Below the pieces are notes generated by a model. It saw only the letters and a program-made list of their open reading frames with translations. It was not told the origin of the DNA and ran no database searches. 64,000 nt of DNA from Savitreella phatthalungensis (lineage: Eukaryota), in the NCBI GenBank assembly GCA_051599415.1, contig AP039698.1:434001-498000 (forward strand). The letters run 5' to 3'. The position numbers and the translations under genes were made by a program. Of this stretch, positions 11,131-52,204 are shown in pieces; the first letter of the stretch is position 1, and each line of letters opens with the position of its first letter.

Positions 11131-11301
11131 TGTGCTTCGCCCACGCCATCATGGCGATGAACTGCAGCGCGTCATTATCATATATCATCTCCATGGTTGT
11201 GCATTCGACGCTTTACCAGAAGCCATGCATACGAACCACAACGCTTCGGGAATAGTGTGGAGAGGGCAAAGATATGATCACTTCAGGTAGGGCAAAAATC
11301 A

Positions 11302-12831
11302 ATGGAAACCAGTCCGCGAATAGATCCTGGAGTAGCTTTGGAAGCGCCGGACAGGAGCGTGATGGGTGGTGCACTCTCCCGTGAAGATATGCTGTCGCGG
11401 CCAATCAGGATCCTGTGTGCTGGCGACAGCATCACCGAGGGGATGTCCGCCCATCAGCCGCAGCCTCATCCGTACTCGAACGAGCTTGCGGCCATGCTAG
11501 GCAAGACCCCCAGCGCCGTACACAACGTCGGTGTGTCAGGAGCTAAGATTCGCGAGATTCAAGGCTTTATGCGAGATGGCCTGTCAAAACACGGAAGGCA
11601 AGATTTGGTACTTGTCCTGGCAGGGACGAATGATCTAGGCCTGGAGGACGCGGATGTCGGGGCTGCTTTCGATGAGCTTAGAGACTTGTGGGCAGAGGCA
11701 CGGAAGACTGGTGCTCGGGTAGTGGCTATGACGATGCTAGAAATCAAATTCGCTGGCGAGTTCCGCAATCGAGGACTAGCGCTAAACAAGCTAATACGTG
11801 ATCACTTCGATAACATCAATCAGGACGAGCGTCTGGTCATGTTTGACGCATACGACGCTTTCCCTGAGGAAGGCGGCAACGAATATTGGTCGGATCCTGT
11901 ACATCCTTCAGCCTTGGGTTACAAACGCCTTGGCGAACAGATTGGGAGCTGGTTAGCGAGCACGTTCGATTGGGATGCTATCAGACGGAAGACGTTCTTC
12001 CGACCATGTATTGACATACACTCGGGCGTAGTCAAGCAAATTGTTGGTGGCACTCTATCAGATGCGCTTGCGCCCGCAGCGACCGAACTTAAGACGAATT
12101 TCGTGTCTGAGCATCCAGCTAGCTGGTTTGCTGAGATTTACCGTCAGTACAATCTGACGGGCGGACACGTCATCATGCTCGGTCCAGGTTGTGAGGAAGC
12201 TGCAAAGGGTGCGCTCGCTGCCTGGCCAGATAGACTCCAGGTAGGTGGGGGTATCAACAATCGCAACGCAGCGGGCTGGATCACCGCCGGGGCCTCGAAA
12301 GTCATCGTGACGTCGTGGCTTTTCCCAGACGGTGAGTTTGACATTGACAGACTCGACATGCTGAGACAGCTCGTTGGTAGGGACAGGATCGTGGTAGATC
12401 TGTCATGTCGGAGGCGGAAGTCGTCATCTAGCACGGCTCCAGCGTGGACAGTGGCTATGAACAAGTGGCAGACACTGACAACGCTCGACATCACAAATGA
12501 TGCCTTGGATAGGCTTGCAGATTACTGCAGCGAATTCTTAGTCCATGCCGCTGACGTCGAAGGGCTGCAGCAAGGCGTCGACGAAGCTCTGGTTACGTTC
12601 TTGGGACAGTGGGCAGCTCGCCGGAAAGAGCGGCTGAAAAGAGAAGGTACTTTGGGCGATGATTTCGGCGTCACCTATGCGGGAGGCGCACGCTATGTGG
12701 ACGACCTTCGTAATGTGCACACTCTGTCAGGCGGATTCGTTGACTTGACCATTGGCTCGGCCCTCGACATTTTCGGCGGGTCAGGTGCGACCTTGAAGCA
12801 GTGTATCGAGTGGAATCTAGCCATTCTGTAG
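11302..12831 (+). CDS. HIS6: Fusion of an N-terminal SGNH/GDSL hydrolase and a C-terminal ProFAR isomerase (His6)
   Basis: SGNH blocks GDSITEG, GVSG, GTND, DPVHP, followed in frame from ~11990 by His6 motifs FRPCIDIHSGVVKQIVGGTL, GGHVIMLGPG, LQVGGGI, EFLVHAADVEGL, DLTIGSALDIFGG. Confidence 0.9.
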   Translation: METSPRIDPGVALEAPDRSVMGGALSREDMLSRPIRILCAGDSITEGMSAHQPQPHPYSNELAAMLGKTPSAVHNVGVSGAKIREIQGFMRDGLSKHGRQDLVLVLAGTNDLGLEDADVGAAFDELRDLWAEARKTGARVVAMTMLEIKFAGEFRNRGLALNKLIRDHFDNINQDERLVMFDAYDAFPEEGGNEYWSDPVHPSALGYKRLGEQIGSWLASTFDWDAIRRKTFFRPCIDIHSGVVKQIVGGTLSDALAPAATELKTNFVSEHPASWFAEIYRQYNLTGGHVIMLGPGCEEAAKGALAAWPDRLQVGGGINNRNAAGWITAGASKVIVTSWLFPDGEFDIDRLDMLRQLVGRDRIVVDLSCRRRKSSSSTAPAWTVAMNKWQTLTTLDITNDALDRLADYCSEFLVHAADVEGLQQGVDEALVTFLGQWAARRKERLKREGTLGDDFGVTYAGGARYVDDLRNVHTLSGGFVDLTIGSALDIFGGSGATLKQCIEWNLAIL

Positions 12832-38882: not shown

Positions 38883-41552
38883 GTCAAGCGTGGGGGTGGG
38901 ATGTTCTTATACCTTTGGCGAGCAAAGTGCCAAGCTTCTGGATCTGTTCGCTAGTGGTTGATTTAGTGTGGGTGTCGATTGTTGTGGGTCGCTTCCGCCG
39001 GGATCCGCAAAAATCTTGGTGTGGGGTTGTCTTGAGTTTCGTGCTGATTTCTTGAAGACGGTCCAGCGGCGGCAGAACTTCCTAACACAGATCGATTTGA
39101 TCAATCAGTTTGCAGAGCTAAAGGTGGTTGACTGCTCACAGTGACAAAGTCGTTCAGTATATCGATGCAACACTGCTGAGTGTCGTGCACAAGCGGATTT
39201 CCGTCTCACTATATAGTAGTGCTCGCTTCTTCTCGTCTACTGACTGCACCGTCGCACAGGACATCAATGATCGGGCAAGCGGGGGTGCGACTTGTCAGAG
39301 ACGATAGATCTGACCCCAGACATGGCCAGGTGTTCGGAAAAGGGCAAGCCTGGGGAGGAAGGTCGACTTGAGGGAACACACATGTGTTGGTCGCAGAGTT
39401 GAGCTGGTTTGGTAGGAACAGATTTCGAACCATCGAATTTAATCATTTGATCGTCTGCAGATTAGGAACTACGAAGTTAAGCTTGGGATATATGGCTACA
39501 TACATGGGCAGAGACGTATGTCACATGTTATGTTGATTTTAGAGTAACCTATGACAGCCAATTCTGCTCCAGCTGTCTGCTGCTCATAGCTTCGGAACTC
39601 TATTAGGTTCGATTGACGCTCAATTAATTCTACCAGCTTCAGTGAGAATCTGGTAGAGGTTGGAAAATCTAGTGGAGGACCGCACTCGGATACCTTCCTA
39701 CGTTCTCTCAAGAAATATCTGTCGCAATACTTACCGCAGCGTGAATTTCGTGGGATCTCAAACTATCCCAGGTGATATGGAACAGCTACTAGAATTGTAA
39801 CTCCTCCCGGCCACTACGTCAGCATTATGTCCATAAGCGACTACCACACCGTCGTCGATCTGGTTGATAGTTCTACTTTGGCTTCATTCTGAGACGGGTG
39901 GAAAGAGTAGGTCAACTTTGTGGGCGAGTTGGGAACGAATCAGGGAAGTAACTACATTGACTCGATGGTCCCCAGAGCAGCACGAACTCCTGCAGTGCAC
40001 AGTCAATCGATGTCAGGGCTCGAGTGATAGTACGTCATCGAGCACTGCATCTTCTACTACCATCGAGCAGATGTCGACCACACTCATCAACTCCTCCAGA
40101 CGTTCAGCTCGTGACTGACTTGATTCGGGTTGCCGATTGAATTGCTTCTGGCTATGCTTCTAGTTCGCTCAGGATGTTCTCTGCAGTGAGAGCTCACTCA
40201 AAAGTAAATCATATGATCTGCCATAATCTGTCATTTTATCGATCAGGATTTACACCCAAAAGGGATGAGCTGCAGTGGACTCTAGCCAAAGGTCGTGGGC
40301 TGATCAATAAATTATGCTTCGAAGCAAAAGAAGATTCACTGCAATGATGACGATGAGAGCTATCTAGTGCCCTGAGACGCATGACACAGAGCGCTTTCGG
40401 GCGTTACAGCGGATCCTGGCCGCTGGTCCAGGTCTTAGGATTGGATGCAGTGCTGGCCCATGCAACTATTCGGCCCTGCTCAATCGCGGAGTGTAATAGA
40501 CTCTGAGCGCTTCACCCTAGCTTGGCAATCACATGTCAGCGGTTTGGCGATGCTAACCGCCGGTAAGCGACCTTCTTCGCAGATCTATGGGGAACATGAC
40601 ATCGATCGTGTAGTAATAGCACTAGGGGGTGGATCGGGAGCCGCCTGACAGTGCAGCCGCTTGATCCGCTGATCGAAACCAATTCTCGTGATCAGGCTGA
40701 CCATTATCGTATTTATGAAATTGACCCTGACTGATGCAAATTCAGCAGCATCGAATTGAAAGTGGATGTGTTATGTGATTCAAAGGTGCATACACCCCGT
40801 GTCTCTAGAAGCAGAGATCATAATGAAATTGGCTTACAATCGAGAATGGAAATTACATGTGACAAGCACTTTGGAGCCATATGCGTTCGATACAGCCAGA
40901 AATTGATTTGAATTTGTATGAACTTGAGCATGATCACCGCTATCACTTCGGAATCTCCAGCGCTTTCCTATGACGTCCGCAGTCGACCTCGATTCTTAGA
41001 CCCGATTCCGTGCACGTGCATATAATGGGAGAAACGAGTCTACGTGAACAACTTTTATGCACCGTGCGTACGAATTAGCATGCGGTTGTAGAGATGGATT
41101 CAAGCCGAAGCCTTAGCCTTGCCGAGTCATCTCAGCGCCGCGTAAAGCGCTTTTATACGCTGTCAACTGATCTCTTCAGGGCAGCACTACGATCTTTCTG
41201 GCTATTGAGATCGTATGTCATAGCTCCAATATGAAGACTGTCAGCATGAATCTTTGATCGCCGCGCTGGCAAGCGAATCAGCTCAAGAAGCGCAGGGACA
41301 ACGGTCAGCAAGGGCGACAAGCGATTCGAACGGCCCATAGTATAATGATTTGCACTTGCATTGCGCTGTCTTGCACGATCGCAGAACCCATCACAGTGCG
41401 ATCCATGGCGATCTCTTCTCCATCGATCGTGCATAAAATGATTTCGCGCGCCGAACCTGGACTGACATTAAATCATCCACTGGGAGCAGGAGACGGTGCG
41501 CGTGTGACGTGAGTACATCGACGCGGCTCCAAGACGACGCACTTCTGCATCG

Positions 41553-42767
41553 ATGCGATGCACGAGGCTGCTATCGTCACAGATCCCGACACTCTCGGAG
41601 CGGGCGCGGAGCATCTCCCAAGGTCTGGTGAAGCAGACTACACTCTGGCGTCCCGCGGCTCTTCGCGATCCTGAGGCTATTCAACAGGCCGTGGACCGTT
41701 CCCATCTGCGTGATTATGCGGGGAAAGGCACAATCATTGAGATGAATCCTGGGCCGGGGCTTCTCATGCAGCACATCATTGAGAAGATCAAGCCTCACAG
41801 ATACGTCGCTTTAGAAACGCGGGAGCAGTTTACGCCGGCCCTCAACCTAGTTCGCGAGGCAGCAAAGGCACTGGACGTTGATTGCCGCGTCTTGAACCTC
41901 AACGGCTACCTCTGGGATACGTACGATGAGCTCGATCGTCTTCGAGTCGTCCCCTACGATGAGGTTGTGTACCCTCAAGAGGCAGGAGTCAACACTAACA
42001 TATGCCTGATAGCATCAATTCGTGATGCAGAGCTAGAGCAACTCCTGGCACAGTGGCTCGTTACGATGGCCACAAAATCATGGATCTTCTCTCTGGGTCG
42101 CGTTCGGCTCTACGCATTCGTTTCCCCGGGCGTGCGGCAGCGCTGGATGGCGCCAGTTGGCTCGCCCGCAAGATCGCGGCTCACAGTCATTCGAGAGGGA
42201 GCTTGCGATATCCGCGAGATCTTGCACAACCCATGGCAACGGCTCGGCAGATCAGCAAAGGCTGTGTGGCAGGAGGACATCAGCGATAAACCTGCTGACC
42301 CGGCTGTGCCTCGTGCTGACCCGGACTGTTTTATCAACACGTCGGACCTTTCACTGATCGAGCTCACTCCGTTCGCGACGCCGGGATTCACAGTGCCGTT
42401 CGAGTCATTCGACTATGTCGCTCGAAATCTCTTCATGAACCGCACTACAGCACTATACAAGCAGGTGCGCAGTCTCGCAAGCGGTGCTTACACTATTCTA
42501 AGGGATTTACCTGACGATCTTTGCCTGAAAACGCCGAGCGAAATGACGTTCAGCGATATGAACAGGATCGCGAGTGCTTTCCACAATTGGCCCTTTCGTC
42601 CGCGCTATCTCCACGTTGAAGATACCTCTACGGGCGAGAATCTCGTGAACCTCAAGTCCGTCATCAGCCAGACGATGCAAGAGGGTGCCATCAGGCAGCG
42701 GCAAAGTCCCATCAAAATCGGTACACCGGCCACAGCTCCGCCGAGCGCTTTTGAAAAACACCAATGA
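41553..42767 (+). CDS. MTF1: Mitochondrial transcription factor B (rRNA methyltransferase-like fold)
   Basis: IIEMNPGPGL...KPHRYVALE, FSLGRVRLY, R.RLTVIRE, F..WPFRP; N-terminal presequence. Confidence 0.8.
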   Translation: MRCTRLLSSQIPTLSERARSISQGLVKQTTLWRPAALRDPEAIQQAVDRSHLRDYAGKGTIIEMNPGPGLLMQHIIEKIKPHRYVALETREQFTPALNLVREAAKALDVDCRVLNLNGYLWDTYDELDRLRVVPYDEVVYPQEAGVNTNICLIASIRDAELEQLLAQWLVTMATKSWIFSLGRVRLYAFVSPGVRQRWMAPVGSPARSRLTVIREGACDIREILHNPWQRLGRSAKAVWQEDISDKPADPAVPRADPDCFINTSDLSLIELTPFATPGFTVPFESFDYVARNLFMNRTTALYKQVRSLASGAYTILRDLPDDLCLKTPSEMTFSDMNRIASAFHNWPFRPRYLHVEDTSTGENLVNLKSVISQTMQEGAIRQRQSPIKIGTPATAPPSAFEKHQ

Positions 42768-42827
42768 TCGAAGCTCTCTTTCGGCGGTCCGAAGGAGCGC
42801 ACACTACTCTAGACTTCATCACGGTCC

Positions 42828-43330
42828 CGGCACTGCTCCGCTCGCAGGTCGGTCGCACATCTAGGCCCGCGCGCCATGTAGCCATGCGGCTACGAGTGTT
42901 CTCAGACTTTGTCCTTGCAGATGTCCCCGCTGTGGACACCGCAAGCTTCCACGACGAACTCGTCGTTCAAGTCAGCCGCGGCGCACGGCACCCTCTACTG
43001 GCCAAATGACCACGTCGACTAGGTCGAGTCAGTCGCGCACTTAATGATTAGGGCCAGAGTCTCGCCGCGTCTTGTCGTGTGGCAACGTGCGTGACTGACT
43101 CTGACCCTAACTGTGAAGTGCGCGACTGACTCGCCCTAGTCGACGTGGTCATTTGGCCAGCAGAGGGTGCCGTGCGCCGCGGCTGACTTGAACGACGAGT
43201 TCGTCGTGGAAGCTTGCGGTGTCCACAGCGGGGACATCTGCAAGCACGAAGGTCTGAAATACTCTCAGCCGGATGGCTACGTGGCGCGCCGGCCCAAATG
43301 CGCGACTAACCTGCGAGGGGAGCAGTGCCG
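42828..43330. repeat. Long inverted repeat 1 (234-bp arms, 35-nt loop)
   Basis: Arms 42828-43061 and 43097-43330 are colinear. The core 42914-43042/43116-43244 (129 bp) has ~2 mismatches; the outer ~85 bp are more diverged. Confidence 0.95.
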
Positions 43331-43900
43331 CGATTGTAGTGTCCAGCTTTGGCTCTTCCGGCAGCGTGCCTAGGCCAGGCAAAGAAGCCATTGCCAATGA
43401 TGATCCGAATGTGAACGCCGCGGATAACCAATGGAGATGGAAGGATGGGTAGGATTTGTCGGACGATTTGTATCTTATATACCTTGCTCATTTCTCTTGC
43501 CTGACATGACCTGGCAGCCAAAATCAAGGTCGAGTTACAGCTGCAATTGAACATACAGATTATTCCTTCAATACAAGTTACATATGTCGAGCGTTCCCAG
43601 ATTGACGTCAGCGCGATGACGGCGGTGGCGGCAGTTCCTGGCAAACGATTCGTACTTGTCACGATAGTCTCTAGGTCTTCTTTGAGCAGCAATGACAAAT
43701 CAGTCGATGATCTATCGGAAGCAGCTTAAGGCTTACGACAGCAGACGAGGCGTCACAAAGTAGACGTATTGATAGTATTCCGACTATAAAGGGTATCACG
43801 AAAGTTGTAACGAAGGTGAAAGTATGTTAGAATTGCAGAGCATCTCCGGAGTGCGAGTTGTCCGATGCTGTAACACTGAAGATATACATACGCTTAGACT
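43097..43900 (-). pseudogene. Unit 1 of an unrecognised tandem gene family (stops/frameshifts, 3'-truncated and folded back)
   Basis: Encodes ARHVAIRLRVFQTFVLADVPAVDTASFHDELVVQVSRGARHPLLA; the upstream block 43510-43880 aligns by eye with 46990-47360 and 49620-49990. Confidence 0.7.
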
Positions 43901-44353
43901 TGACAAATATGTGAGCTCAAATTTCTGGAGACGCCGCGCTACGTAACACGTGCGATTGATGATCGTTGCAGAGTAGTCATCGCTAAAATTTGCCGTCTTC
44001 GTAACCACTGTGAGTTGCATGAAGAAATGCTTTCAGAAGGTATGATCTCGCAGCGGCTTCAGTCCGCATGTTGGCATTTCAGCTTTGTGATGGAATTCGC
44101 TATAGCTGCATGGCAAGTCTGACTCTCTCCAAGGAGCAGCCATCCACGGCTCAAGCTGCTTCAGCCGTTTGTCTCCGCACGATTATCGTCATAGGTCTCA
44201 GTCATTTGCAAGCGCTTTATGCAAGCGCCGCTTCGACGACATTGCATAGTCTGAGGCTGACATCGTGTCCACAAATCTCGCAAAGATCAAGGCCATCTAT
44301 GGGGGATTTATATAGACGACTTCCGTCGCTGCAGTATCAGAACCACACGCCCC

Positions 44354-45409
44354 ATGTTCTTCAAGCTCATCAGCGATCCTGGCTGTAGATTGACGGTATC
44401 TACCGGACCCGACAAGAACTATGCAGCTATCGCTGAAGGGGCGCATTTCATGGTCATGTGTACTCCCGGGGAAGGAATGCGCCATGGCTACAAAGTCACG
44501 TTCGCTTTGGCCTATGACAGGTGTAACTCTTGGGAAAGGTGTACCTGTGTACCAGGAGACCCGCTCAACAAAGCTCGTCAAATAGAGACTGTCTCGGTTG
44601 GCTATCGTACATTCTCAGTGTCAGGCAAGTGGACCGATGCCGTCGGTGGCGGCCATCCTTCGAAGCCTATGGAAGAATTCTGGCTGCGCGACACAAAACC
44701 TCGAAAAGTGACCAAGCAGAAGTCTGGCCTCACAAACGTGGTCTTTATTGACCCGAAACTGCCGTGGCCGGACGTGACTACAAAAGTGGAGTCACCCTGT
44801 CTCTTCGACTCCTATGACAAGCACTACCCGCTCCACCCCGGAGAACAGCAGACCCGTGCAAAGGTCCATGTGAGCATCGTCGATGGCGATGCTGTGGTGA
44901 GCGTCGATGGTGATTCGGAAGATGTAGGTGTCATCTTCTGGACGCATCAGCCCGCGCCTCCGACACAGGGACGAACGCTGTTCACAGCGACAGTCACGTG
45001 TAACCCCGGGCCACCGTCATACGGGAAAGATCCATATGATCATGCATCTGCTTGTGACCAGCCGTTTTCCTACTCACGCGCGGATTATTTCTTTTATCGG
45101 GGTCCAGAGGCTCGCCTCGCGTCTATTGGTTGGTGGACCAAGCCTAAGCCTTGGGAAAGCATCGCTTTACGCTTTATTCCGGGAAAAATGAGGGACCTCA
45201 AGTGGTATGTTCGGGGGTTCGGCCGGCGTAGGGTCTGGCCAATTTTCGACCGCGCCAAGGCCCCCTCGGATTGCAAGACGTACCGAACGATAGCTTCTCA
45301 CTGGGCCACATACGATGACGCTCGGGATGCATGCTCAGAAGCAAGCACACTGCTTGAGCGACATCACTATGTGCAGAGTATGAGACGAGGGTTCCGAAAT
45401 GTCATTTGA
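44354..45409 (+). CDS. Orphan hypothetical protein (351 aa, Cys/Trp/Pro-rich), possibly with an upstream exon
   Basis: Long uninterrupted ORF; the frame is open back to 44261, next to a GCTGAC branch-site-like motif; no recognisable domain. Confidence 0.6.
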   Translation: MFFKLISDPGCRLTVSTGPDKNYAAIAEGAHFMVMCTPGEGMRHGYKVTFALAYDRCNSWERCTCVPGDPLNKARQIETVSVGYRTFSVSGKWTDAVGGGHPSKPMEEFWLRDTKPRKVTKQKSGLTNVVFIDPKLPWPDVTTKVESPCLFDSYDKHYPLHPGEQQTRAKVHVSIVDGDAVVSVDGDSEDVGVIFWTHQPAPPTQGRTLFTATVTCNPGPPSYGKDPYDHASACDQPFSYSRADYFFYRGPEARLASIGWWTKPKPWESIALRFIPGKMRDLKWYVRGFGRRRVWPIFDRAKAPSDCKTYRTIASHWATYDDARDACSEASTLLERHHYVQSMRRGFRNVI

Positions 45410-45985
45410 CACGGACTAGCCCGCGAGTCTACAGGTCAATGACAGTTGTGGCGAGTTTTGAGATTAGCTGCATTCCTTCACATATGGTTACGTACTGAGT
45501 GCGATGGAAAATAAGCCATTGGGAAAGTATCGATGAGCTCGTACCGGACGATGAAACACTATTTGTGTACAAAGGAGGTGGCTCAACAGCTGTATCGGAG
45601 GTGGATCATCAGCATTCCCCGGCTGTGACATGAGAGACCAATGTAACACTTTCCTAATCCGTCTCGCATCCATTAAGGCAAGTCATCGACCCACGCCTTC
45701 TTTCACAGACAACTTGAGCGACGCGAGCATGACAAGTCACGCATTTGTAGGAGCACACCTTCGAGAAGACCAGTCGTAGTTGAATACGCTATCATGCTAA
45801 GACCTCGAGAGCACTGTGTTGAACAGCAGAATCCTCAATTCCAAGTGAATGAGGCTGGTTTGGTCGTCGCCACCCAGTTGGGCGTGACTAGACCAGTCGT
45901 GCGAAGACTGGTATGGCAACTCAGCGTCTTTGTAGGATCGCGGCTTCCTTGAAGTTTTTCTAGTTCTTCTGCGAAGGATCCGCCT

Positions 45986-46363
45986 TCGGGCAGCTGGAAG
46001 CGCCAGCTTTTCAAGTTCACCATATTAAGAGCGGCTCAAAGCGCGTGCTGAGACTGCGGCACCCTCTGCTGGCCGACAGGCCAAACAAGCGCCTAATGGT
46101 GCTTGGCACCAGCCAGAACGCCCAAGTCGACTCGCTTCAGGCGAGTCAGTCGCGTACCTCGACTCTGTCGGCAAATCTTGATGGTGGTCACCCTGGGGTC
46201 GCTTCCGGTAGCGTCGCAGCCGGGCAGACCAGCACATCGAACCTGACAGGCGCGAACAACCGGGCTCCAACAGCATTTGTCGAATACTTCGATTATCAAC
46301 GCGTTGACGTTGGTCGGGCAGCTGGAAGCGCCAGCTTTTCAAGTTCTCCATATTAAGAGCGGC
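45986..46363. repeat. 50-bp direct repeat flanking the inverted insertion in unit 2
   Basis: TCGGGCAGCTGGAAGCGCCAGCTTTTCAAGTTC(A/T)CCATATTAAGAGCGGC at 45986-46035 and 46314-46363, 1 mismatch. Confidence 0.92.
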
Positions 46364-46655
46364 CGAGTTGAGCCGCAGTCTTAGCACGCGCTTTGACACA
46401 ACGTCATTGCGTTGATAATCGAAGTATTCGACAAAAGCTGTTGGAGCCCGGTTGTTCGCGCCTGTCAGGTTCGATGTGCTGGTCTGCCCGGCTGCGACGC
46501 TACCGGAAGCGACCTCAGGGTGACCACCATCAAGATTTGCCGACAGAGTCGAGGTACGCGACTGACTCGCCTGAAGCGAGTCGACTTGGGCGTTCTGGCT
46601 GGTGCCAAGCACCATTAGGCACTTGTTTGGCCTGTCGGCCAGCAGAGGGTGCCGC
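46056..46655. repeat. Long inverted repeat 2 (257-bp arms, 86-nt spacer)
   Basis: 46056-46312 is the reverse complement of 46399-46655 with ~5 mismatches; in addition 46036-46059 pairs with 46373-46396. Confidence 0.96.
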
Positions 46656-48600
46656 GCGCCGCGGCTTATCTCCACGACGTACTTGTCATGGAAGTTTGCA
46701 GTGTCCACAGCGGGGACATCTGCAAGGACAAAGTCTGAGAACCCTCGTAGCTGGATGGCTACATGGCGCGCGGACCCAGATCCGCGCAAATCGGCTCTCG
46801 CGCGCAGGAGGGCCGGGATGACCACGTCAATGCTCTGGTTGCTCGGCGGGTGTGCTTGATGGTTGCCATAAACAGGACGATGATCGCGTCTCCGGCATCC
46901 AGATATGGATGCTGAGGTGGAAAGGTGGCCACGTAATGTTGACGTATTCGTGTCTTATAAGTTGCTCAATTCTCTGGGCCAACATTCTCTGGCAGCCAAA
47001 TTAGTTGAATTATTACAAATGAACGTATAGGCTATTCTTCGAATACGAGGTACGTATGGCCTGCCTCAGGGCTGAGCAGCTAGAAGACATGTCAGAGCAA
47101 CGGAAAGAGCAGTGACAGCTGCTGTTCATCGATTGTCACAACGATCTCCGCGACTTCGTCGAGCGACAACGACACTCAACTCGGTGACGTTCCGGAAGCC
47201 CTTCGAGACTCGCGACAACTGACAATGCGCCTCAAAGCAGTCCTGATAGTGATGGTATGACTGGGGTGTCACACAAGCTCTGACAAAGTCGAAGGCATGT
47301 GAGGACTTGAGTGCCCTTGCGAGTGCTCGCTGCCCGACACTGCAACATCAAAGACGTGCCCGGAATATCAATGGCAAGCTTACACACGTGCCAGATATAA
47401 ATCCACACGTGCCAGCCTTCATAACTTAATTAAGTGACTCGATGCAGTGCTATATAACTTCTACATATACTCAAGCTTGCAAGTGTGTATAGATGTATTC
47501 GCAAGCCCATCCAGATAAAATTAGAGCCACGACAAAATATGCGCTTTCATAGTGGTTGGACTCAAAGACCGGTTGCTTGCAATGCGTTATCGCCCCGGCC
47601 CCAAATATGTCTATAAATAGTATCATTCAGGTATTTGCATATACTGTTGAAACATACAAAGAAGCGCGCCAGAGTCCAGAGTTCCAATGTTTCGATAATT
47701 GAGGTGGTCCGCTTGCGATTCTGGACTATCGTGTTTGGTAAGTGTGAGTCGCGTTGCATGCTTCGCTCAGTCTGCCGAATGTAGCAGCCCTTAACGACTG
47801 TTACAGCCAGACATTCTTGTACCGAGTCGCGACAACGAAGCCATCACCCATCATCCCCAGATTTTCGGCCGTGAAAAGAGCGATGACATGCCATTGATCT
47901 CGGCCCTTTGTAATCGCGTTTCGAGGACGCCAAGCTGGGTCGCAGGTATCGGTGAATTGTCTTCATGGGGGTCCTGCTCGGTGAGTGGCTGGATGTCCTA
48001 GCGGCTAGCTTCTTCGTCGGCAAGCCATCGAACGACCGGCTGGACACAAAGCAAAGAACCATCGATCTGTTTGACCCCCTTTTCAACAGACTTCTACGCT
48101 AGAAGGTATTGCAGGCCATGTGGCAGGCTAGGTGCTTGTGTGTTTTGGATCCGTGCATGTCTCAGATCTTCCAGTTTTCGCCGACATTTGCAGCGTATTT
48201 AGCTCCAGCGCTGCTCCGCATCTAGACTTAATGAGAATCGGCGGAATTTCGGCTGAATGCAGAAATCATGTAAAGAGAAAAGAAAGCGTCCCCACGTGCT
48301 CGTGGTTGAATAAGGGTTTAGCTAGTGCAACGGCGGTCACGCGGGTTCGCCGCGATATTCGACAACATGGAAAATAATGCCTTGTAGATAGAACGTATCT
48401 TTGCGAGAATTTTCTTGCCGGCGGCTGCTAGCGCATTTGACGAAGGTTGAGTACGCCCATGAATGATATTGAGTAGGAAATGGAGAGGACCTGTGCCTTT
48501 CCCGTTTTTCACCTAGAAGGGCCCAGTACAAGAAAACTCATTCATTAGCTACGAATGCTATTCTAAGCTACAAATGAGAACAACAAAATGAGTACTCCCT

Positions 48601-50030
48601 TGATTGCCATGTCAGCGAGAGCTCACTGACGCTTGCGGACCAGTTGGGCGTTGTCCAGCCGGGGGTAGTCAGGACTGCCGATATCTCTAACGGATTGTTA
48701 GAGGTCTTGAGTTAGGGCTTCGGTTTAGCCAAAATGTAGGTCAGAGCCTCATCATAGAGGTCGCGGTTGCTACTAGGCACCGCAAATGTCCACTTGAGAC
48801 TCTTGTTGATGGCTGCGGAGTCGAACCGTACGACTAGCGCGCCTCTCGTGACATTGGCGTTGCGCATATACGACTCCAAGTGCATGGTCGTCTGGGCGAC
48901 GCGGACGTTTGTCCTCTCTGCTGTGACGACTTTTCTTAGCTTGGAACTGACCCCAGCGGAGGCGGTACCCGGGTGACCCGCGTCAGCATGGGCGGAGTGC
49001 TCGCGCGAGCGCTCAATCGTTCAGTGCTCCTTCTCAGTAAGGTTGGACGACGAAGCTCAGCATGCAGCCACTGATTCTCTGAACGTCCTGCCTGAGCAGG
49101 TGTCTTTTGCCACGCTGGAATAGCAGAACCAGCTCGTCCTCGCTAGTCAGCGATTTGATTGCCGGGAGAATGATTTCGATGGACTCCGCCCACCGGCGGA
49201 GTCTTAGTTGGGCAAATCGCCCCGGTCGTTGCGCGAAGACGTCCGCGCGCGACACGAGGCGAATTGGCACGCTGACGTCGATCAGCGGTTCTCCAGTCGC
49301 TCTGCTTGTTGGGCTTTCGACGTCCAACCTTAGGGTTAGGGTTCGCCTCCGCTGGGGTCAGTTCCAAGCTAAGAAAAGTCGTCACAGCAGAGAGGACAAA
49401 CGTCCGCGTCGCCCAGACGACCATGCACTTGGAGTCGTATATGCGCAACGCCGCTCGCAAGCGGCGTGCCAATAAGCGTTGTAGCAGCGACAACAGAAAG
49501 CCAAAAGCCGTCACATCAAGCCAACGGAGAAGGAATAACGCGAAGCGCAACATATTGAGGTGAACAAGATGCGTGTTTGCTATTCATTGACAAATGCGCT
49601 TTTATATTCTATCAATGGTGGCCAACATAATTTGCCGGCTGGAAACGGGATTGAGTTATGACAATTGAGCTCCCATACACGACAATTAAGCCAATCGTTC
49701 TCCAGATCAAAGCAGTACAAAAGCATGCTAGAGCGATCCATATAGATGTCCACAGTGAATTCGGGCATGCGATAGTCTTCACAGCATCATTGAGCAGTGA
49801 TTACAGTGAGCTCGGTGACACTTCTGTGCCGGCTTGGGACTCGTGGCAGCAAGCAAACGCGCTGTAAAGCAGACGTATCGATATCAATATGACTAGACAA
49901 GGTGTCACGATAGTTCTGACTAAATCGAAGGCGTGTAAAGACTGCAAGTACTGTACGAGTGCTGGTCCGATGCTTGAGCATTGTAGACGTGCACAGTGGA
50001 TTTATGCCAAGCATATGCACGTGCCAGTAT
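48601..50030 (-). pseudogene. Unit 3 of the unrecognised family (stops/frameshifts, inverted insertion)
   Basis: IDVSVPIRLVSRAD...DELVLLFQRGKRHLL, SAHADAGHPGTASAGV, YMRNANVTRGALVVRFDSAAINKSLKWTFAVP and LTTPGWTTPNWSASVSELSLTW each align with unit 2; premature stops at 49034 and 48712. Confidence 0.72.
48856..49452. repeat. Long inverted repeat 3 (109-bp perfect arms, 379-nt spacer)
   Basis: 48856-48964 is the exact reverse complement of 49344-49452; an inner imperfect stem 49038-49067/49302-49332 and a weaker outer extension are also visible. Confidence 0.96.
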
Positions 50031-50206
50031 ACAGATATACGACGTCCAGATCAATTTATTTATGGCCTCGAATGAAGGATGAGATTTCCGCTTTCAGTAC
50101 GTGAGCTCAAGACTTCCACAACGCCGCGCACCGCTGAGCGTCTTGCAGGAAAGAAGATCTTTCTCGTCGCCCTTGAGACAAGTCAGGCTGCGCTCCTCAC
50201 TATACG

Positions 50207-52204
50207 ATGGTTAAAGAACTCGGAAAGCTCTTCGATTCAGCGGAGCAGGCGAACCGCTTTCTTGGAGAAGATCTTGCCTTTTGGTCGCGAACGCAGGCAA
50301 AACGTGCCAAGCAGCTTAGCCTTGCAACGCCTCCGAAATCAATTGCTTCTGTGATGACCTGGCCTGTGCGCGATCAGGCAGACAATGGGGAACGAATGCG
50401 AGAGCGTAATCGTCAACGTCAGCGTCAACGGAAACATCTTGCAAAGCGAAAGAATCGTGCATCACGTTCGCAGTCGACGTCAAACGCGGGCTCGTTCAGC
50501 TGTGAAGCTCGAATCGTGGCCACAGCTTTACGCCTTGCTCCGGCTCTCCATTCTGCCCCACTCATTGAGCTAAATGCCCGCGAGACTACTCACGCCCCTT
50601 GTGATGAGCTTGGACATTCCCAGTCGACACGAGGAGCACCTTCTGTCTGGGCGGACACGCGCCAAGAATTGTGCGAGGGGCTCCAGTATTTTCGCTCTTA
50701 CCATTCTGGTGCATATGGAAAGAACGGCTTCGTTTCGGGGTACCTGATCGATGGTCACAATGCCGACGGAGACAGAATTGGCGGTCGCATCATCATCAGC
50801 CATGCTGGCGGAAAATACTCAGCGGCCGAAGGCAAGCTTCACGCAGATCAGACTATCACAGACAGATCTGTGGCTGCGCTCATGAAGAATTTGACCCACG
50901 ATGTACCGCTTGTGCTCATTGCTGGAAACAGGTGGCCTTCGCGAGTTCAGCTCAACCATCGATACAATGTTCTTGGATGGTTCAGGGTCACGCACATATG
51001 GCCTGAGTGCCGATCGACAGGTACGGTTTTCAGAGTGCGATTTGAGACGCTCGATGCGGAGGTGGGCTGGTGGGCTCCCTCTGTTATGCGCGACCACATC
51101 CTGAATGGTCAGCTAGGGCAGTTCTTCTGCCATACTTGTGAGAGCGGGAGCCCTGTCCTCTACTCCCCTGCGACTTGCCTCAATCGCGACTGTTCGGCAT
51201 ACGCGACAGGTCAGTTGTCTCTCGACGCCGTGCATTGCCACTCTGGGAGAAAGCAAGCTGTTCCTCCGCATGGCCTCGAACCGAGGCATATCTGGCCCAT
51301 AAAAGGCTTTGGTACACGACGGGAGGACTGGCTGGCATTTCATTGCGACCGATGTGGTAAAATCAATTGCGTGATAGATTGGAACTCCAGACAATGCTCC
51401 AACTGCGATTCTCATCATCCAACATCTGGTCGCGTGGTCATTCCGCTGGACGTCGTCCTCGATCCGCACAGGCTTGTATACACAGGGATACCACTCATCA
51501 CTGATTTTTGTGCGCCCGAAATCAAACAACAGCGCCGAGAAATGCCTTCGCTTTGTATCGTTGAGTATGTTCTTCACGAATGCGGTCGTGTATACCATGT
51601 TCGAGCGTCTGAGAGTGCCAACACAGTAGCTGACGCGCTGTACTACGGCTATCAAGAGCAGAACGTGCCGATGCGCAGACGTATGCTGCGAAATTGCCGG
51701 TCGGACACTGGAATGCTCTGCCAGCAATTTCAGCACAATGCTGGCCATGCCTATAGGTTTTCCTGCCAGATTGACACGCAGCCCTTAGATGAATGCGCTC
51801 AAGTGGTACGCGACGCCCTAAGACTCATGCAATCACGCGTTGAATCGTGCGGTATCAGCGCAGAATTCAATCAGGTGCTCAGCATCGCTTACATGGAGCG
51901 GCAAAAGATGGACTTCCACGATGATGGAGAACGTGGAGTCGGGTCAGTGGTCGCCTCCATCTCACTGGGTGGATCTGCGGTGATGCGGTTCCGGGCCAAG
52001 AGGAAGCGAAGCAAACGAGGAGCCTGCGATGTACCAGAGGAGACGAGCGGTCGTGGTGACCTGCTGAAGCTCGACTTGATGCATGGAGATGTCTGCATCA
52101 TGGCGGGTCCGGCGTTACAGCGAGATTTCGAGCACTCCGTCATACCGTCCGGTTTATTTCGTCTAGCTGTGACAGCGCGTCTCATCGACCAGGAGAATGT
52201 CTAG
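50207..52204 (+). CDS. SRA/SAD-like + Zn-ribbon + AlkB-type 2OG-Fe(II) dioxygenase
   Basis: C-terminal AlkB motifs FNQVL..Y...KMDFHDDGE, ASISLG, LMHGD..IM.G..Q...EH, RLAVTAR; Cys pairs CHTC, CLNRDC, CDRC, CSNC; N-terminal WADTRQELCE..YFRSYHSGAY...HAGG...YNVLGWFRVTHIW. Confidence 0.85.
   Translation: MVKELGKLFDSAEQANRFLGEDLAFWSRTQAKRAKQLSLATPPKSIASVMTWPVRDQADNGERMRERNRQRQRQRKHLAKRKNRASRSQSTSNAGSFSCEARIVATALRLAPALHSAPLIELNARETTHAPCDELGHSQSTRGAPSVWADTRQELCEGLQYFRSYHSGAYGKNGFVSGYLIDGHNADGDRIGGRIIISHAGGKYSAAEGKLHADQTITDRSVAALMKNLTHDVPLVLIAGNRWPSRVQLNHRYNVLGWFRVTHIWPECRSTGTVFRVRFETLDAEVGWWAPSVMRDHILNGQLGQFFCHTCESGSPVLYSPATCLNRDCSAYATGQLSLDAVHCHSGRKQAVPPHGLEPRHIWPIKGFGTRREDWLAFHCDRCGKINCVIDWNSRQCSNCDSHHPTSGRVVIPLDVVLDPHRLVYTGIPLITDFCAPEIKQQRREMPSLCIVEYVLHECGRVYHVRASESANTVADALYYGYQEQNVPMRRRMLRNCRSDTGMLCQQFQHNAGHAYRFSCQIDTQPLDECAQVVRDALRLMQSRVESCGISAEFNQVLSIAYMERQKMDFHDDGERGVGSVVASISLGGSAVMRFRAKRKRSKRGACDVPEETSGRGDLLKLDLMHGDVCIMAGPALQRDFEHSVIPSGLFRLAVTARLIDQENV

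Follow-up and report, generated by a model that had tools for sequence, protein, structure and literature searches.

Tandem clusters of fast-evolving, taxonomically restricted genes are known from smut fungi. Hairpin-RNA genes arise from inverted duplications of their targets, as exemplified by the Drosophila hairpin RNAs (hpRNAs) that suppress drive genes and by young plant MIRNA genes. Here we describe a locus with traits of both groups from Savitreella phatthalungensis, an array of three paralogous units located in a stretch of 64,000 nucleotides (nt), in the following referred to as the window (assembly GCA_051599415.1, contig AP039698.1, positions 434,001 to 498,000 of the forward strand; all coordinates below are window positions). 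The lesions found in these units also have described parallels. The respective articles report telomeric repeats inserted at sites of break repair (PMC8537989), fold-back templated inverted insertions (PMC11724301, PMC7467729) and fold-back inversions in yeast (PMC3974649, PMC11724301, PMC7467729), and name de novo telomere addition as a further outcome of chromosome breaks.

Self-comparison of the window placed the units on the minus strand at ~42.8-43.9 kb (unit 1), 45.8-47.4 kb (unit 2) and 48.6-50.0 kb (unit 3). Our preferred explanation, to which we assign a probability of about 0.62 as a whole, is that they represent a tandem trio of a lineage-restricted ('orphan') fungal gene with a coding region of ~250 codons each. 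Judged by the sequence, all three copies are now disabled, and the array would be a decaying relic without present protein function. In each unit the main lesion, situated at the point of disruption, is an inverted copy templated by the unit's own nearby sequence. One arm of each inverted repeat is collinear with the coding region of the other units.

That the units once encoded proteins is supported by the comparison of units 2 and 3. Unit 2 and the stretch 49327->48568 of unit 3 share three collinear matches at the protein level (tblastx, BLASTP), with BLASTP identities of 31 % over 75 amino acids (aa; expect value (E) 6e-10), 34 % over 76 aa (E 2e-9) and, between the tails, 39 % over 38 aa (E 5e-6). 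The tblastx matches of the two coding parts are confined to the sense frame, and no similarity between these parts was detectable at the DNA level. Identical residues account for 65 of the 187 aligned positions (34.8 % aa identity), and over the same 187 codons 46.0, 57.2 and 29.9 % of the nucleotides agree at the first, second and third codon position, respectively. Saturated third positions combined with best-kept second positions are what long purifying selection on a protein leaves behind; the coding regions have been under such selection for a long time. By a codon-usage log-odds score trained on 16 genes of the window, the sense frame came out best of the six frames in every coding piece but the tail of unit 3 (5 of 6 pieces; +0.04 to +0.175 bit per codon). 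Four control genes scored +0.136 to +0.363. The conserved protein spans roughly 250 codons, approximately from 'IDV..P' to a '..TW' tail.

Units 1 and 2 are closer to each other, with 82 % DNA identity over 182 nt in a '3' block'. The peptide FVLADVPAVDT..FHD..VV..SRGARHPLLA is located in the minus-strand open reading frame (ORF) 46025-46954 of unit 2, and unit 1 holds a peptide of this type twice, at 43155-43304 (minus) and at 42854-43003 (plus). Units 2 and 1 differ at 31 sites of a 150-nt gap-free core, 15 of which are third codon positions, and the ratio of nonsynonymous to synonymous substitution rates (dN/dS) in the sense frame is 0.27 (Nei-Gojobori; Fisher p 0.0013). A preliminary description of the locus had quoted these peptides, proposed homology of the copies, observed that substitutions between them are often synonymous, and concluded that they were real, fast-evolving protein genes without an assignable fold. 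Peptides and DNA homology were found as described, and the conclusion is borne out for a product of ~250 aa by the collinear sense-frame matches, the third-position saturation and the host-like codon usage. The synonymous bias holds for one of the two unit 1 arms (the other is considered below), and the broken state of all copies had been missed. The coding part of unit 3 lies outside the stretch that had been assigned to this unit.

The lesions differ in detail between the units (Table 1). The frame of unit 1 starts with an ATG at 43391 and ends in a stop at 43149-43151, with the centre of a palindrome ~50 nt beyond; the coding region past the first 80 codons, roughly the C-terminal two thirds, is gone. 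In unit 2 the part conserved with the other units begins near 46834. The sense ORF lacks an in-frame ATG ahead of codon 114, the closest ATGs upstream (46898, 46869) being in the two remaining frames. Further downstream this unit is interrupted by an inverted self-copy of 277 nt, consisting of a 257-nt arm with 98 % complementarity to its partner and a displaced 25-nt piece, and the spacer between the arms is 86 nt long. The insertion block totals 328 nt and lies between 50-nt direct repeats, which translate alike in the sense frame (AALNMVNLKSWRFQLPE and AALNMENLKSWRFQLPD). One junction of the block, where the displaced 25-nt piece is attached, shows a 5-nt overlap, GCGGC.

Unit 3 changes frame between 49037 and 49020 and contains in-frame stops at 49021-49023 and 48712-48714. 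Its inverted copy lies near the expected start codon, upstream of its partner, and the arms enclose a loop of 379 nt. Exactly at the junction of this insertion is a telomere-type sequence, TTAGGGTTAGGGTT, which corresponds to 2.3 telomere repeats in one orientation; no microhomology was found where it joins the arm. The pattern TTAGGGTTAGGG, with up to 1 mismatch allowed, gave 6 matches compared to 0.03 expected, and none of 100 shuffles equalled this number. A second internal telomere-type tract of about six degenerate CCCTAA units was observed at 2314-2349. It belongs to a ~251-nt tandem duplication with 95-nt cores (2218-2312 and 2469-2563; 96 %), one copy of which has the tract in place of the sequence present in the other. 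The occurrence of two such tracts within 64 kb suggests frequent telomerase action at internal breaks in this genome.

The lesions are probably scars of double-strand-break repair in which a broken end folded back or switched template, whereby the opposite strand would have been copied over 109-277 nt at the broken end. In unit 3, telomerase would first have added 2.3 repeats to the left end; the orientation of the G-rich strand fits this step. Unit 3 resembles the interstitial telomeric sequences described in PMC8537989 in that a short perfect repeat is found internally and exactly at a rearrangement junction (49330-49343). That account describes vertebrates, whereas in our case the organism is a fungus and the repeat is joined to inverted neighbouring DNA. 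Similarly, the yeast fold-back insertions in PMC3974649, PMC11724301 and PMC7467729 share with our locus inverted copies near the junction and a short spacer (35 nt in unit 1, 86 nt in unit 2). They mostly measure 5-34 bp, in contrast to the 109-277 nt found here, which represent fixed natural events in three paralogues within 7 kb. Candidate reasons for the same lesion in all three copies are local fragility, selection for inactivation of a harmful gene, or use of the resulting hairpins.

Table 1. Features of the three-unit array and its flanking genes in the window.
Feature	Position	Strand	Remarks
rRNA (ribosomal RNA)-dimethylase-like gene	ORF 41508-42767		Ends at 42767; one flank of the island
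Unit 1 capping palindrome	42825..43333	.	Arms 42825-43061 and 43097-43333, 237 nt, 88 % complementary; 35-nt centre
Unit 1 coding remnant (predicted protein P0002)	43149..43391	-	ATG, 80 codons, stop; 65 % identical to unit 2
Unit 1 TATA-like motif TATATAAG	43474..43481	-	83 nt upstream of ATG; aligns with unit 2 motif; putative function
Unit 1 upstream block	43657..43916	-	Three-way alignment; codon scores negative in six frames
Unit 2 C-terminal tail	45835..46035	-	66 codons and stop 45835-45837; matches unit 3 tail
50-nt direct repeat bounding unit 2 insertion	45986..46035 and 46314-46363	.	98 % identity
Unit 2 inverted self-copy	46036..46312	+	Reverse complement of 46399-46655 plus 46372-46396
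Unit 2 main coding piece	46313..46954	-	214 codons open; codon score +0.175, best of six frames
Unit 2 TATA-like motif (TTATAAG)	46952..46961	-	Alignment
Unit 2 upstream block	47135..47402	-	Carries CACGTG at 47385, with 47406 just beyond
Unit 3 C-terminal tail	48568..48711	-	Behind in-frame stop; BLASTP match to unit 2 tail
Unit 3 piece b	48715..49020	-	102 codons, frame differs from piece a; between stops 49021-49023 and 48712-48714
Unit 3 piece a	49037..49327	-	97 codons, then stop 49034-49036; BLASTP match to unit 2
Telomere-type repeat TTAGGGTTAGGGTT	49330..49343	+	Exactly at junction of the 109-nt insertion of unit 3
Unit 3 inverted copy	49344..49452	+	Perfect 109-nt copy, 100 % complementary to 48856-48964; near expected start codon
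Unit 3 TATA-like motif TATAAAAG	49599..49606	-	Sequence position
Unit 3 upstream block	49766..50036	-	Carries CACGTG at 50018
2-oxoglutarate (2OG)-Fe(II) oxygenase gene	ORF 50177-52204		Start near 50207; other flank of the island

Short-read contigs supported the assembled structure. The contigs of runs X1 and X2 match the window with a single difference of one base, in record 5 of X1 (46437-46655). Contigs at 42967-43191 and 46317-46466 cross the palindrome centres, and one at 48935-49373 crosses the telomere-repeat junction. At the arms of the repeats the contigs end, as is usual for de Bruijn assembly. An assembly artefact was considered as the source of the palindromes and rejected, the centres being spanned by these contigs. 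A second source is a related organism, here called B (runs X3 and X4; depth 2-3), in which pieces of the island are mostly 95-99 % identical. Its contigs show zero depth in the bin 49421-49821, and none of the pieces listed crosses the unit 3 junction.

Copies of the family may also have exchanged sequence. The inner ~110 nt of the unit 1 palindrome arms are almost identical, and the outer parts have diverged. The outer part of the left arm (42825-42940) is nearer to unit 2 (46700-46818) than to its own right arm (43215-43333), a likeness that suggests gene conversion among the copies. In organism B, one low-depth contig joins 42817 to 43342 on opposite strands, as if the arms matched there, which hints at possible gene conversion between copies after the split of the two organisms.

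Upstream of the coding parts, the units share a second conserved segment of ~250 nt, the '5' block'. Local DNA identities are 63 % over 223 nt (units 1/2), 68 % over 135 nt (units 2/3) and 74 % over 58 nt (units 1/3), and pairwise identities over the whole block are nearly equal (140/225, 139/226 and 134/222, i.e. 60-62 %). The preliminary description had taken this block as the beginning of a protein of 450-500 aa which extends through the 3' block; stops and shifts would then be recent damage. The peptides quoted for a shared frame, CQLSRVSKGFRNVTELSVVVA and CLLPRVPSRHRSVTELTVITA, are present in the ORFs 47126-47347 and 49787-50050. Moreover, the block peptide of unit 2 is in frame with the downstream coding part, with 3 stops in 131 codons from 47347 to 46955, and unit 3 is open in one frame from 50050->49580 with one stop, as had been stated. 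However, stops occur in every frame of the block in all units, the copies differ by indels of 1, 3 and 4 nt, and the motifs 'HAFD.VR..VTP' and 'C.L.RV...VTEL', which share one frame in unit 2, are in different frames in unit 3. Similarity of the block was seen by tblastx in several frames and on both strands, as expected of plain DNA similarity. Host codon scores of the three blocks are negative in 18 out of 18 frames (-0.09 to -0.45), and sliding 50-codon scores are non-coding as well. In addition, the TATA-like motif and, in unit 1, the ATG are located downstream of the block. The block is non-coding, the claim of a shared frame could not be upheld, and the proposed size gives way to ~250 codons. 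We regard a 450-500 aa protein as very improbable.

Instead, the block is probably upstream regulatory DNA. TATA-like motifs lie downstream of it in all three units, and a TATA-proximal block with 70 % identity is common to units 1 and 2. The hexamer CACGTG occurs at or just past the distal end of each block, at 43947 in unit 1, at 47385 and 47406 in unit 2, and at 50018 in unit 3. The block of unit 3 is located 170-440 nt upstream of the likely ATG of the 2OG-oxygenase gene and may serve both gene directions. The block does not behave as a structured non-coding RNA: RNAalifold predicted a weak fold (-20.1 kcal/mol over 276 columns, three sequences), and Rfam gave 0 matches in 42000-51000.

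The arrangement of a conserved, promoter-like block in front of an inverted repeat of coding sequence, found in 3 of 3 units, raises the question of whether the duplications themselves are functional. Transcripts driven by the block would then fold into hairpins, and small RNAs derived from them would silence members of the family. The Drosophila hpRNAs and plant MIRNA genes are alike in that an inverted coding duplicate lies behind a promoter-like region and a long perfect stem is predicted. For the minus strand of unit 2 (46030-46680), a hairpin of -615 kcal/mol (z = -56) with a near-perfect 257-bp stem is predicted if the region is transcribed, and the high complementarity of two of the repeats (98 % and 100 %) marks them as young or homogenised. 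On the other hand, the protein-library searches found no intact target copy, the copy of unit 3 is located upstream of its partner with a loop of 379 nt, and the arms of unit 1 have drifted to 88 %. A hairpin function therefore appears hardly probable. A still more far-reaching variant, which we consider highly speculative and even less probable, is that hairpin-RNA genes were born repeatedly from a harmful (selfish or toxic) family and that their small RNAs silence its remaining members. If true, the suppressor hairpins that act on drive genes in flies would have a counterpart in a fungus. This variant would also explain why the block is more conserved than synonymous sites and why the copies share such an unusual lesion.

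At least one copy might still be working, either as an 80-aa product of unit 1 or through splicing or re-initiation in unit 2 or 3, with the blocks kept for regulation. Unit 1 retains an ATG, a TATA-like motif and an open frame of 80 codons, the upstream block is kept better than synonymous sites, and the closely related organism B retains the region. Nevertheless, unit 1 is short of its C-terminal two thirds, and units 2 and 3 would each need several independent rescues. As a specific case, an intron across the frame change of unit 3 was considered and rejected, because inspection by eye revealed no GT..AG interval with plausible fungal-type splice signals. We therefore consider a working copy unlikely, and a decaying relic remains our preferred reading.

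Several points weigh against a relic that was inactivated by break repair. The 5' block (60-62 %) has retained far more identity than units 2 and 3 have at synonymous sites (30 %), a difference that suggests either constraint, present or recent, or gene conversion and is odd for a dead relic. For unit 2 against the second arm of unit 1, dN/dS is 0.57, which is not significant (p 0.29). Introns or unusual starts may rescue a copy, and intact paralogues may exist elsewhere in the genome or in relatives. With regard to the mechanism, microhomology is present at one junction only (GCGGC, 5 nt), and break repair is put forward solely on the anatomy of the lesions, as their probable origin. Finally, runs X1 and X2 represent one sample which may be the source of the assembly, and their contigs are not independent proof of the structure.

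Database searches yielded no genuine relative, in agreement with the earlier statement that no domain is recognisable. Pfam gave 0 families for seven small ORFs (E<=0.1) and for five coding pieces (E<=10), and a PDB profile search gave 0 matches (E<=1). A HMMER search of 1.84 billion representatives gave 5 proteins with E<=0.001. Two of these were ORFs of the window itself (P0001 and P0002); the remaining 3 are long proteins matched in 8-15 stretches, and the one inspected proved to be a low-complexity tandem repeat. In word-indexed searches the sole match among 181 candidates was the window's own ORF, 2021 longer candidates yielded none, and a metagenome scan with a single protein produced 227 pattern matches with 0 confirmed. 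A paralogue as remote as unit 3 (~35 % identity) is not significant in a library of 1.8 billion proteins, so that these searches exclude close relatives only.

Structure prediction was equally uninformative with regard to the fold. AlphaFold2 with a 5-row family alignment modelled the main piece of unit 2 at a mean predicted local distance difference test score (pLDDT) of 39.1, too low for a fold search. At low confidence, the model has strand-rich ends around a Ser/Thr/Gln-rich middle, which suggests a possibly cytosolic, strand-rich protein with a Ser/Thr/Gln-rich linker. ESM Atlas rows were also tried as evidence and rejected at a recognition of 1535, below the meaningful level; the top rows were unnamed bacterial clusters, and clusters with a leukocidin family in 10-20 % of their members. 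By eye, the start of unit 1, MASLPGLGTLPEEPK, lacks a hydrophobic core, and no signal peptide is evident in the only copy with a preserved ATG. In unit 3 a hydrophobic ORF start (49553 downwards) is out of frame with the coding part. Like the array, the orphan tandem families of smut fungi have a single orientation, lack homologues beyond their lineage and comprise strongly diverged copies. They differ from our array, in which all copies are broken and no signal peptide is visible in the start-keeping copy. A trait of effector clusters is present in the tandem, lineage-restricted, diverging paralogues of the array. A toxin, a driver, an effector or a viral origin, which the preliminary description had left as options, are guesses none of which is favoured by our results.

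The array occupies a 7.3-kb island between two conserved genes in a compact, intron-poor fungal chromosome segment. Ordinary eukaryotic housekeeping domains were found in 15 of 16 long uninterrupted ORFs of the window (E<=1e-5), including an FHA kinase, aconitase, eIF2A, NOP9, CLN3 and a P450-reductase fusion. The presence of palindromes, tandem paralogues and orphan ORFs in such a region, together with the telomere-type repeat at 49330-49343 and the second tract at 2314-2349, could be taken to mean that the units derive from a mobile element or from what was once a chromosome end (subtelomere) rather than an ordinary cellular gene family. Yet no transposase, reverse-transcriptase or integrase matches were obtained with Pfam among the ORFs and coding pieces scanned, and no terminal repeats bound the units, the repeats found being self-derived inverted copies and the 50-nt duplication. 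The G+C content of the array (0.52-0.53) is that of its surroundings (0.48-0.57 throughout the window), and its codon usage is host-like. Furthermore, the telomeric sequence amounts to no more than 2.3 repeats, which share one orientation and lie exactly at a rearrangement junction. A mobile or subtelomeric origin is accordingly quite improbable.

Between units 1 and 2 the island contains the intact plus-strand ORF 44354-45409 of 351 codons with weakly host-like codon usage. Its product (44354-45406, 351 aa) has no relative in Pfam, PDB, Atlas or the databases searched except itself, and its AlphaFold model is unusable (pLDDT 32.6). It is a second orphan inside the same island. The ~1.2 kb between units 2 and 3 (47400-48560) contain no ORF with host-like codon usage and have no match within the window, an emptiness unusual for so compact a genome. 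Elsewhere in the window, a single uninterrupted frame of 517 codons on the plus strand (11278-12831) combines a GDSL-lipase domain (residues 47-217) with a His_biosynth (HisA/HisF-type) domain (243-496), and possibly represents either a gene fusion or read-through of two genes in the same frame.

Viewed as a protein family the array adds little, as it offers no fold, no relatives and no intact copy, and does not raise a functional question of its own. A concrete oddity is the upstream block that has outlasted the synonymous sites, for which regulation, gene conversion or hairpin transcription could each be an explanation. The value of the locus lies in its anatomy, which would provide a compact natural record of fold-back or template-switch repair and of telomerase action at internal breaks in a fungus.

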